In this document: one piece after another, positions 5,295 to 5,613 of the stretch | How positions within the stretch are numbered: the stretch's first letter is position 1 | How the letters are laid out: every line of letters starts with the position of its first letter | IMG/VR virus record: IMGVR_UViG_2690316086_000017 | Source: a virus | Taxonomy: Duplodnaviria > Heunggongvirae > Uroviricota > Caudoviricetes | Reading direction: 5' to 3' (one strand) | DNA: 8,108 bases | Program-made: the position numbers and the translations under genes | Notes under the pieces: generated by a model | Told to the model about the DNA's origin: nothing | The model's database searches: none | What the model saw: only the letters and a program-made list of their open reading frames with translations

Positions 5295-5542
5295 GTTATG
5301 CGCTTCAGTTTTGCCCAGGACGCCAATCCCGGCACCCGTTTTATGAGGTGCGCGGGAATCATAGCTATTTTCGACACTGGCGATCAACTGGTTTTTTTCT
5401 CCGATATTCAGGGCCAGAAAACGCCACACAAAGGCCGTTTGTGTGTGTACAAGGTGTGGTATATGATTTACGGCAACCATAACGGCTCCTAGTTTACGTT
5501 GTTGGTTAGACGCCCCGTATGTGTTCCCAGCACTGCGGGGCG

Positions 5543-5613
5543 TTGATTTTTGTGTAATGGCAAGTACAATGGTAATTACCATGTAGGTATAGTAATGAAG
5601 GGTAATTACCATG
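5543..5613 (+). promoter_or_regulatory. sigma70-like promoter with two palindromic operators for the Arc-like gene
   Basis: TTGATT (5543-5548), 16-bp spacer, TACAAT (5565-5570). Perfect 14-bp palindrome ATGGTAATTACCAT at 5569-5582 and near-copy AGGGTAATTACCAT at 5599-5612, 30 bp apart. The first overlaps the -10 and predicted +1, the second overlaps the RBS and ATG. Confidence 0.5.

Follow-up and report, generated by a model that had tools for sequence, protein, structure and literature searches.

A conserved gene for a 57-residue protein of probable ribbon-helix-helix fold, with paired palindromic candidate operators, as a candidate repressor of the early promoter of an Escherichia coli satellite island

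The stretch of DNA analysed here (IMG/VR virus record IMGVR_UViG_2690316086_000017; 8108 bp, hereafter the window) is 100% identical to Escherichia coli O26:H11 strain 11368, in which it represents nearly all of an island of ~8.4 kb flanked by tRNA-Pro/yejM and yejO. A small gene of this island, divergent from the replication operon, encodes a protein of 57 amino acids (aa) for which a ribbon-helix-helix (RHH) fold is taken as the working fold. Sequence comparisons suggest, with an estimated probability of about 0.65, that this protein is an operator-binding repressor of the leftward early promoter PL, allele-specific in its choice of sites and autoregulated. An original prediction for this DNA had described an Arc-like repressor with paired palindromic operators in the interval 5509-5613. 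The switch is more interesting than a lone palindrome pair.

The 57-aa gene, its predicted operators and the predicted promoters that share them

The 57-aa open reading frame (ORF) of the original prediction is present, and comparative analysis indicates that it is a real, conserved gene, because it has 93 length-conserved homologues and a coding-type substitution pattern. Indeed, (i) the encoded protein (MSTPLEKRSPPYQMRLPEDFRAQLEEAAKADGDTSLATWIKRVLRKELQQRGIEPKG) shares 60-98% identity with these 93 homologues (E<=1e-3), nearly all of which are 56-58 aa long; (ii) 18 columns are invariant in an alignment of 27 sequences; and (iii) the variability at codon positions 1, 2 and 3 is 0.143, 0.062 and 0.358, respectively, as in coding sequences. 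The homologues were found in the genera Escherichia, Salmonella, Enterobacter, Yersinia, Serratia, Xenorhabdus, Photorhabdus, Pantoea, Pectobacterium, Pasteurella, Gilliamella, Aeromonas and Oceanimonas, a spread over at least five bacterial orders or families (Enterobacterales, Pasteurellaceae, Aeromonas, Oceanimonas, Gilliamella). The gene is carried by ~10% of complete E. coli genomes, the O26 and O157 outbreak lineages included.

The decamer GGTAATTACC occurs exactly twice in the window, as the core of operator O1 (ATGGTAATTACCAT) and as operator O2, both of which are predicted sites (Table 1). Two copies of a 14-bp palindrome had been described 30 bp apart; the pair and its spacing (exactly 30 bp, about three helical turns) are as described, but the right-hand copy is perfect over 10 bp only, its extension to 14 bp (5599-5612) matching at 12 of the 14 positions. 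The unit common to both operators as a direct repeat is the 13-mer GGTAATTACCATG. The placement of the two sites was correctly seen: O1 abuts the plus-strand hexamer TACAAT (5565-5570), the predicted -10 element of the gene itself, and O2 lies between a Shine-Dalgarno (SD)-like GAAGGG (5597-5602) and the ATG. An identical 10-bp palindrome pair within 60 bp was obtained in 6 of 5000 first-order Markov simulations of the window (p ~0.001); the conservation of the pair in related loci, given below, is much stronger evidence than this within-window statistic. No further exact copy was found elsewhere in the island; six matches with two mismatches are scattered there, mostly within genes, and none is a convincing candidate for an additional operator.

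The predicted leftward promoter PL is the top site of the promoter scan (10/12), with a predicted start near 5582, and codons 1-3 (ATG TCA A) of the RHH gene harbour its -35 hexamer. O2 falls wholly inside the 17-bp spacer of PL, and O1 lies at about +2 to +12. PL is the positional equivalent of P4 PLE and would drive the operon composed of the Icd-like, isrK/C4, DUF4222 and RepA genes. The promoter predicted for the RHH gene, Prhh, has its predicted start within O1, and its -35 is overlapped by the T-tail of an upstream terminator; a -10-like hexamer that abuts or overlaps O1 was also found in other lineages (TACAAT, TAAAAT, TATAAT, TATACT or TGTAAT). PL and Prhh stand face to face, with predicted starts ~5 bp apart, and both operators are common to both promoters. 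The original prediction had placed the operators on the RHH promoter only; they also bracket the strong, conserved PL, and it is this placement that directly argues for the early operon being repressed. The autoregulation that it proposed is plausible, because the operators overlap the promoter, the ribosome-binding site and the start codon of the RHH gene, and the divergent orientation relative to the replication operon agrees with the gene order in the window and in related loci.

This arrangement was compared across 60 fetched loci (one genome per species) and further loci, which gave 54 distinct switch regions. The -35 hexamer TTGACA is kept in 48/54 regions, and wherever position 2 of the RHH protein is a serine (48 regions), TCA encodes it, despite the existence of six serine codons. 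The -10 consensus of PL, at 16-18 bp from the -35, is T46 A42 T45 n A37 T49. The operator pair is present in nearly all regions, O2 being a perfect 10-bp palindrome in 38/54 and O1 in 24/54; the O1-O2 distance is 30-31 bp in 32 of 46 regions, and, with few exceptions among the loci, O2 is centred on position -5 relative to the start codon.

Furthermore, both operator copies change in concert from locus to locus (GGTAATTACC, TGTAATTACA, GGTATATACC, GTGTAATTACAC), together with the N-terminal arm of the protein. In brief, these combinations include: the motif RSP(Q/P)(Y/F)QMRL with operators of the type GGTnnnTACC; the motif K(T/S)xQYQ(I/L)RL with TGTAATTACA; the motif RSPQFPMRL with GGTATATACC; and the motif GNPPFQFRL with GTGTAATTACAC-like operators. 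By raw counts, RS-arm proteins are paired with the outer bases GG..C(C/A) in 31/31 regions and K-arm proteins with (T/A)G..CA in 12/12, so that all 43 scorable regions conform without exception. From one locus to another, the int, alpA and replication genes beside the switch are for the most part unrelated, which leaves the RHH protein as the only one that travels with the sites. This co-variation is the strongest argument, drawn from sequence comparison, for regarding the palindromes as RHH operators. Cognate palindromic operators at an own or target promoter are a feature of Arc/MetJ-type regulators, and the conserved, co-varying pair of predicted sites corresponds to it; the view that the palindromes behave as cognate operators of the RHH protein is therewith supported. 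In some GGTA-type elements (L002, L014, L018), a third palindrome, TGTAATTACA, which is the operator sequence of the K-arm alleles, was observed ~12 bp upstream of O1 (~-48 from the RHH start).

The position of the RHH gene is constant in Pasteurella multocida, in Xenorhabdus and in other E. coli islands: alpA/int flank it on one side, and its other neighbour is a leftward Icd-like/primase operon, whose gene order is a 58-72-aa Icd-like protein (NF033153), small ORFs, DUF4222 and finally a primase or a RepA helicase. Some unusual settings were also observed. Photorhabdus loci (L033-L037, about 4770 and 5990) carry two complete RHH switches in tandem, ~1.2 kb apart, each with a hairpin, two GGTATATACC-type sites, a TTG start codon and an Icd-like ORF. 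An NPPFQFRL-type switch is present on the 100-kb NDM plasmid pNDM_2_P21_SE1_04.20 (L074 3568-4288), divergent from a 105-aa ORF that is followed by WYL-domain and BREX genes, and Erwinia aphidicola (L065-L067) has a remnant switch flanked by toxin-antitoxin genes, ParE/RelB and HipBA.

The gene is poorly represented in annotations: the NCBI pipeline mostly omits it or replaces it with a spurious pseudogene, and some sources label homologues as 'Arc family DNA-binding protein'. In the window, the Prokaryotic Genome Annotation Pipeline (PGAP)/RefSeq places an 'Icd-like pseudogene' (5634-6149, minus strand) opposite the RHH gene and a second small ORF, orf57. This call belongs to a 409-aa antisense open frame (4920-6149, minus strand), which was rejected as a true gene: it is interrupted by stops in 5 of 29 homologues, and the length of the plus-strand ORF is kept everywhere. 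The pseudogene call is probably an annotation artefact that masks the true small genes; an equal antisense artefact was seen in E. coli O157:H7 SS52 (locus L076, 12135-12728).

The conserved hairpin, the leftward operon and the island

The original prediction had not commented on the left half (5509-5550) of its interval 5509-5613. Comparison of related loci indicates that this half is a conserved terminator, probably that of a cis-antisense RNA. Across 37 sequences, compensatory changes are found at 11 of the 14 pairs of the hairpin, and the observed score was reached in 0 of 500 shuffles. There are 62 G-T wobble pairs versus 20 A-C pairs, and the 10 nt located 3' of the stem contain a mean of 6.5 T on the plus strand, versus 1.1 A on the other side; the excess of G-T over A-C pairs and the plus-strand T-run identify a plus-strand terminator.

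A putative -10 hexamer, TATGAT, lies ~42 nt upstream of the hairpin, and a TAnnnT hexamer occupies this fixed position in 42/47 loci. It falls inside the first codons of the leftward ORF, whose codon 6 ends in T in 32/32 cases, over seven codons and six amino acids, which points to a constraint at the DNA level. The predicted RNA (-33.6 kcal/mol, z=-5.1) folds into a 5' hairpin that exposes an anti-SD CUCCU in its loop, followed by the terminator; the RNAalifold consensus has two hairpins, with covariation in both. This putative RNA of ~78 nt, conserved in nearly all related loci, EcCICFT073 included, is probably a cis-antisense RNA covering the ribosome-binding site of the first leftward gene, whose N-terminus (MVAVNHIPHLVHTQTAFVWRF) resembles that of Icd-like proteins. 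An Rfam scan of the whole window at E<=1 returned only C4, isrK and a weak c4-a1b1 match, and no family for the putative antisense RNA; its identity with Esr41 or another curated small RNA was rejected, Esr41 being an Rfam family for which the window has no match.

The first leftward ORF (start 5480) runs on through the isrK and C4 RNA genes. The intact Icd-like (host cell division inhibitor-like) gene follows it (5111-4920) and is the first complete protein gene of the operon, with small ORFs, DUF4222 and the RepA helicase after it, down to 2557. The operon also carries an RNA immunity cassette of the P4/P1 type, on which the original prediction was silent: C4 and isrK both score above their gathering thresholds and stand downstream of the early promoter, as a cassette neighbouring the RHH gene. 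The isrK + C4 cassette is common to the immunity regions of SfV and Shiga toxin (Stx) phages, and the RHH part is not. An obligatory association of C4/isrK immunity with the RHH gene was rejected, as the RNAs were found in two Pasteurellaceae loci only and were missing from 14 of the 16 other loci scanned. Since the RHH gene mostly occurs without C4/isrK and the cassette is shared separately with phages, the RHH switch would be a layer independent of RNA immunity. The cassette appears to be inserted into the leader, is ~72-77% identical to the immunity regions of SfV and many Stx phages, and has a Pfam 'Ash' match placed over it.

On the other side, orf57 is probably co-transcribed with the RHH gene. 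Its translation is identical to that of the CFT073 gene C_RS30800 (L071 5243-5416, minus strand), despite the different regulator gene upstream there; orf57 had no family match in family searches and is absent from the non-E. coli loci. The strong terminator-like hairpin at 6105-6137 has a T-run on the plus strand and a weaker U-rich tail on the minus strand, 27 nt beyond the alpA stop codon. It may act as a terminator in both directions, one which AlpA-dependent transcripts would need to pass.

In EcCICFT073, the equivalent slot is occupied by a 59-aa gene of the YlcI/YnfO family on the opposite strand, with the same hairpin before it and orf57 after it. Two repeats containing GTGGCCCAC are found there (L071 5654-5852); a leftward promoter, TTGACG-N-TATAGT, that heads the Icd-like/primase operon has one of them in its spacer and the other immediately downstream. 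Likewise, an island of sequence type 648 (ST648; L072 1555-1671) has a 101-aa member of this family, with the arms GTGTTTCATG and CATGAAACAC at the equivalent two positions. In these YlcI/YnfO-type alleles the promoter of the protein lies outside the operators. Homology between the RHH protein of the window and the CFT073 protein is not demonstrable (hhalign probability 0.5%), so the latter is a positional analogue only. The E. coli O157:H7 SS52 island (L076), inserted at the CFT073 site (roxA-phoQ), combines the int and alpA genes of EcCICFT073 with a window-type RHH gene and with a RepA helicase in place of the primase, a combination that speaks for module exchange between sibling islands. 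These comparisons suggest that the alpA-side slot holds interchangeable protein/operator modules, like phage immunity regions.

Every annotated gene of the window is on the minus strand (Table 1). Its gene content and the isrK/C4 RNAs identify the island as a Gram-negative phage-inducible chromosomal island (PICI) or a P4-like satellite with a P4/P1-type RNA immunity leader. The major capsid gene closes the island (locus L001, 1819-10304) beside the yejO pseudogene; a small terminase subunit and a capsid protein are encoded, without portal, protease or large terminase, and the island is probably a truncated capsid-forming PICI (cf-PICI).

Table 1. Coordinates of the switch and of the surrounding features in the 8108-bp window.
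Feature	Position	Strand	Basis or remark
57-aa RHH gene	5611-5784 (including stop codon)	+	ORF listing, homologues, model
Operator O1 (ATGGTAATTACCAT)	5569-5582 (core 5571-5580)	.	perfect 14-bp palindrome; predicted site
Operator O2 (GGTAATTACC)	5601-5610	.	perfect 10-bp palindrome; predicted site
Leftward early promoter PL	5589-5617	-	-35 TTGACA 5617-5612, 17-bp spacer, -10 TACTAT 5594-5589
Predicted RHH promoter Prhh	5543-5570	+	TTGATT-16-TACAAT; scan score 9/12
Hairpin (5510-5549) and T-run, intrinsic terminator	5510-5552	+	covariation, T-run
Putative cis-antisense small RNA gene	5462-5552	+	-10 TATGAT 5462-5467; RNA ~5474-5552, ~78 nt
Start of first leftward ORF	5478-5491	-	SD AGGAG 5491-5487, ATG 5480-5478; begins MVAVNHIPHLVHTQTAFVWRF
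isrK-like RNA with terminator	5351-5275	-	Rfam 66 bits (cut-off 50)
C4/CI-type antisense RNA	5253-5166	-	Rfam 77.6 bits (cut-off 45)
Intact Icd-like gene	4920-5111	-	NF033153, 57 bits
orf57, basic 57-aa ORF (MTDKELTKTLSPARKRRRRK...)	5842-6015	+	downstream of RHH gene
Terminator-like hairpin	6105-6137	+	14-pair stem then TTTTTT; between RHH/orf57 unit and alpA-like stop codon
Integrase	6867-8108	-	annotated
83-aa ORF	between integrase and alpA-like gene	-	annotated
AlpA-like helix-turn-helix gene	6164-6370	-	annotated; convergent with 57-aa RHH gene
Icd/Ash-like ORFs, then small hypotheticals, DUF4222	after alpA-like gene in gene order	-	PGAP, Pfam
RepA-type helicase	2557-3957	-	Pfam, PGAP
Small terminase subunit and major capsid protein (308 aa)	distal to RepA	-	PGAP, Pfam

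Proposed control of the early operon and alternative explanations

In the mechanism suggested by this architecture, RHH dimers would bind O2 and O1 and block initiation at PL; the toxic Icd-like gene and the replication genes would then be silent, and RHH synthesis would be limited as well. O2 would probably be filled first, because it is the better-conserved perfect palindrome, which would shut PL and relieve promoter competition while the RHH protein is still made; O1 would probably be filled at higher RHH concentrations and confer negative autoregulation. As a second layer, the ~78-nt cis-antisense RNA could block translation of the first leftward gene, and in this island the C4/isrK RNAs could form a third layer that, together with the antisense RNA, would stop translation or elongation of escaping transcripts. 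Induction by a helper phage would probably bypass the switch, the repressor not being inactivated: AlpA-dependent transcripts initiated upstream of alpA would traverse the RHH gene, antisense to it, and extend into the operon. AlpA of Pseudomonas aeruginosa has been reported as an antiterminator (PMC7969949), and antitermination would fit such a read-through bypass, only by analogy.

The published picture of these islands is centred on activation. AlpA is the helper-induced activator of EcCICFT073 (Fillol-Salom et al., PMC6092414), and the work on EcCIEDL933 and EcCIMP1 again treated AlpA as the master regulator, activated by the helper. The genes of Gram-negative PICIs have been described as mostly or essentially unidirectional, and C4/isrK immunity RNAs have been noted in them (Tommasini et al. 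2023, PMC10111431).

Several observations weigh against the repressor reading, a first group of which concerns the fold. The original prediction had named an Arc/MetJ-type protein, and all formal family scores are below threshold: the match to Pfam PF03869 (Arc) has E=0.038 and 14.3 bits for a cut-off of 20.4, over residues 9-32 only; NCBIfam NF041551 (YlcI_YnfO_N) gives 18.7 bits for a cut-off of 30; and in the PDB profile/sequence search the sole solved RHH match was AmrZ at E=1.1, matches to designed helical repeats being discarded as spurious. The AlphaFold2 monomer model lacks any beta-strand, and every Foldseek E-value is >1, as expected because the domain has only 45 residues. Other results of the same analyses fit an RHH protein. 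The model has helices at 18-31 and 36-50 and an extended N-terminus (mean predicted local distance difference test score, pLDDT, of 77), and its top Foldseek matches are almost all RHH proteins (AmrZ, CopA, NikR, Arc, MazE9, ORF56, CopG, ParD), with TM-scores of ~0.5-0.6. Alignment by hhalign gave probabilities of 27% to Arc and 18% to Mnt and aligned R8-S-P-P-Y-Q-M-R-L-P on Arc K6-M-P-Q-F-N-L-R-W-P, so that residues 11, 13 and 15 fall on the base-contacting Q9, N11 and R13 of Arc; the motif Q/P-Y/F-Q-M-R-L stands in this register. RHH was accepted as the working fold, membership of the Arc family being unproven.

A second group concerns the sites and the function. The counts of arm/operator pairs ignore shared ancestry. 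The four central base pairs of the operator are variable (AATT, ATAT, CGTT, CATT) despite an unchanged beta-strand sequence, so a simple residue-to-base reading is unproven; a code in which Q13 to P would equal AATT to ATAT was weakened by Pmp8, whose QYQMRL strand is accompanied by one AATT and one ATAT site. No recognisable operator pair was found in a few loci (L051, L054), and both PL and Prhh are promoters by consensus match only. Overexpression of AlpA is by itself enough to induce EcCICFT073 (PMC6092414), which implies that the element at this slot is insufficient to silence the island. Finally, searches of the openly accessible literature yielded no binding, transcription or phenotype data on the 57-aa protein, and no paper on this gene or on an RHH/Arc regulator in PICIs, cf-PICIs or P4-like elements.

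The most serious alternative, though an unlikely one, keeps the same protein and sites and assigns them to dosage or copy-number control, or to shut-off after entry, in place of maintenance of the integrated silent state, on the model of P22 Arc or of CopG with RNAII in pMV158: the RHH protein and the antisense RNA would sense gene dosage and damp the replication operon after excision and the onset of replication, or upon entry into a new cell. This role would suit an operon that ends in replication genes (DUF4222, RepA or primase), a repressor that by its geometry is negatively autoregulated, and islands that are induced by AlpA and not by loss of a repressor; an RHH protein combined with a short antisense RNA at a downstream translation start is, moreover, the copy-control design of pMV158. 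In that plasmid, however, copG is co-transcribed with rep, whereas the RHH gene is divergent and has its own promoter, and immunity specificity would better fit the many operator/protein alleles that exclude one another and the exchange of modules among sibling islands. Neither role excludes the other.

Much less probable still is a binding of the palindromes by another factor (AlpA, integrase or a host protein), or their being a promoter-associated sequence, with an unrelated function for the small ORF. The variation of the central bases without a matching change in the protein would be in line with this, but the sites track the RHH arm throughout the scorable regions, no other protein travels with them, the int, alpA and replication genes being unrelated between loci, and O2 abuts the start codon in nearly all loci. 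The least probable explanation, a type II antitoxin of the HicB, ParD or CopG kind with the palindromes as autoregulatory operator of the pair, is suggested by the label 'HicB family antitoxin' given to homologues in some databases, by the RHH antitoxins among the Foldseek matches and by orf57 as a second small ORF after the RHH gene in E. coli, but was dismissed for want of a conserved partner gene: the next gene is convergent (alpA or unrelated) in the Pasteurella, Xenorhabdus and Erwinia loci, orf57 is restricted to E. coli and matches no toxin family, the 57-aa protein has no C-terminal toxin-binding extension, and the conserved neighbour is the divergent Icd-like operon.

Comparison with known regulatory systems

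The closest working analogues of the proposed repressor switch appear to be the Mnt/Arc/sar region of P22 and CopG/RNAII of pMV158. The immI region of P22 comprises the RHH repressors Mnt and Arc, the overlapping promoters Pant and Pmnt and the antisense RNA sar. The likeness concerns (i) a small RHH repressor that is divergent from the operon it would repress; (ii) operators on overlapping, opposed promoters, here the predicted PL (5617-5589, minus strand) and Prhh (5543-5570, plus strand), such that repression of one would favour the other; (iii) a short antisense RNA, putative here, over the translation start of the first repressed gene; and (iv) a beta-strand register that aligns with Arc and Mnt. 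In contrast, a single protein with two like sites is found here, and two proteins with different operators in P22; the operon encodes Icd-like, DUF4222 and RepA/primase proteins, and no antirepressor, whereas that of P22 encodes the antirepressor ant; the element is a satellite and not a phage; and the sequence similarity is below family thresholds.

In pMV158, repB is controlled by CopG, an RHH protein that acts at the promoter, and by the antisense RNAII, which acts at the translation start. The dual control of replication genes by an RHH protein of ~45-57 aa and a short antisense RNA would be shared, and CopG is among the fold matches. As differences, copG is the first gene of the repressed operon and the RHH gene is divergent, the first target is Icd-like here, and there is no sequence homology.

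The RNA immunity systems of P4 and P1 (CI/C4 with seqA/isrK; c4-icd-ant in P1) resemble the window in the position of the operon (PLE/P51 equivalent), in the Icd-like first gene and in the isrK + C4 cassette, and all keep the early operon off. P4 differs in that no protein repressor is known at PLE, and the four phage records with a match to the RHH protein do not include P4; in addition, the RHH/operator/antisense module mostly occurs without C4 or isrK, as would an independent layer.

The original prediction had compared the protein with Stl, the master repressor of Staphylococcus aureus pathogenicity islands (SaPIs). Like Stl and the Rpr proteins of Gram-positive PICIs, the RHH gene has int as a neighbour, runs divergently to the replication operon and might keep the island silent. 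The differences are that Stl is a larger helix-turn-helix protein that is inactivated by binding of helper-phage proteins, whereas Gram-negative PICIs are induced through the activator AlpA (PMC6092414), no anti-repressor being known. The RHH protein has no extra domain with which to bind a helper-encoded anti-repressor, and its sites stand at one promoter only, no further exact copies being present in the island through which the whole of it could be controlled. For these reasons a repressor of one promoter is likelier than a master switch, the probability of which is low; the likeness to Stl is one of position and does not extend to the way in which induction works.

The YlcI/YnfO proteins of EcCICFT073 and other E. 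coli PICIs are encoded at the equivalent place, on the opposite strand between alpA and the Icd-like operon, with the same hairpin before and the same orf57 after the gene, and have their own paired repeats that bracket a TTGACG promoter. They differ from the RHH protein in showing no significant sequence similarity to it and in their operators (two copies of GTGGCCCAC, or the pair GTGTTTCATG/CATGAAACAC). Taken with the window, they lead to a tentative generalisation, for which the odds are somewhat short of even: Gram-negative PICIs and P4-like satellites might harbour, between the replication operon and alpA, a so far overlooked immunity cassette of interchangeable type, composed of an RHH-type repressor, an operator pair that clamps the early promoter and a cis-antisense RNA directed against the Icd-like gene. 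If so, the mutually exclusive specificities (the GGTA, TGTA and GTATAC sub-types of the window type, and the YlcI/YnfO types) would define heteroimmunity groups of satellites; the 'global repressor' missing from the 2018 description of these islands would be provided by the cassette; and the silence of the toxic Icd-like gene and of the replication genes until AlpA-driven read-through would be explained. The activator AlpA is the only known regulator of Gram-negative PICIs, no repressor having been identified so far. Should binding fail, the 57-aa gene would merely be another small conserved ORF of unknown function. Should it repress the early promoter, it would give a testable handle on satellite silence and on the avoidance of cross-talk, offer a natural set of orthogonal pairs of 57-aa repressors and 10-bp operators, and point to an uncurated antisense RNA. 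In summary, the RHH gene is probably a widespread, largely unannotated addition to the known kind of RHH repressors, in satellites that were thought to be repressor-free.

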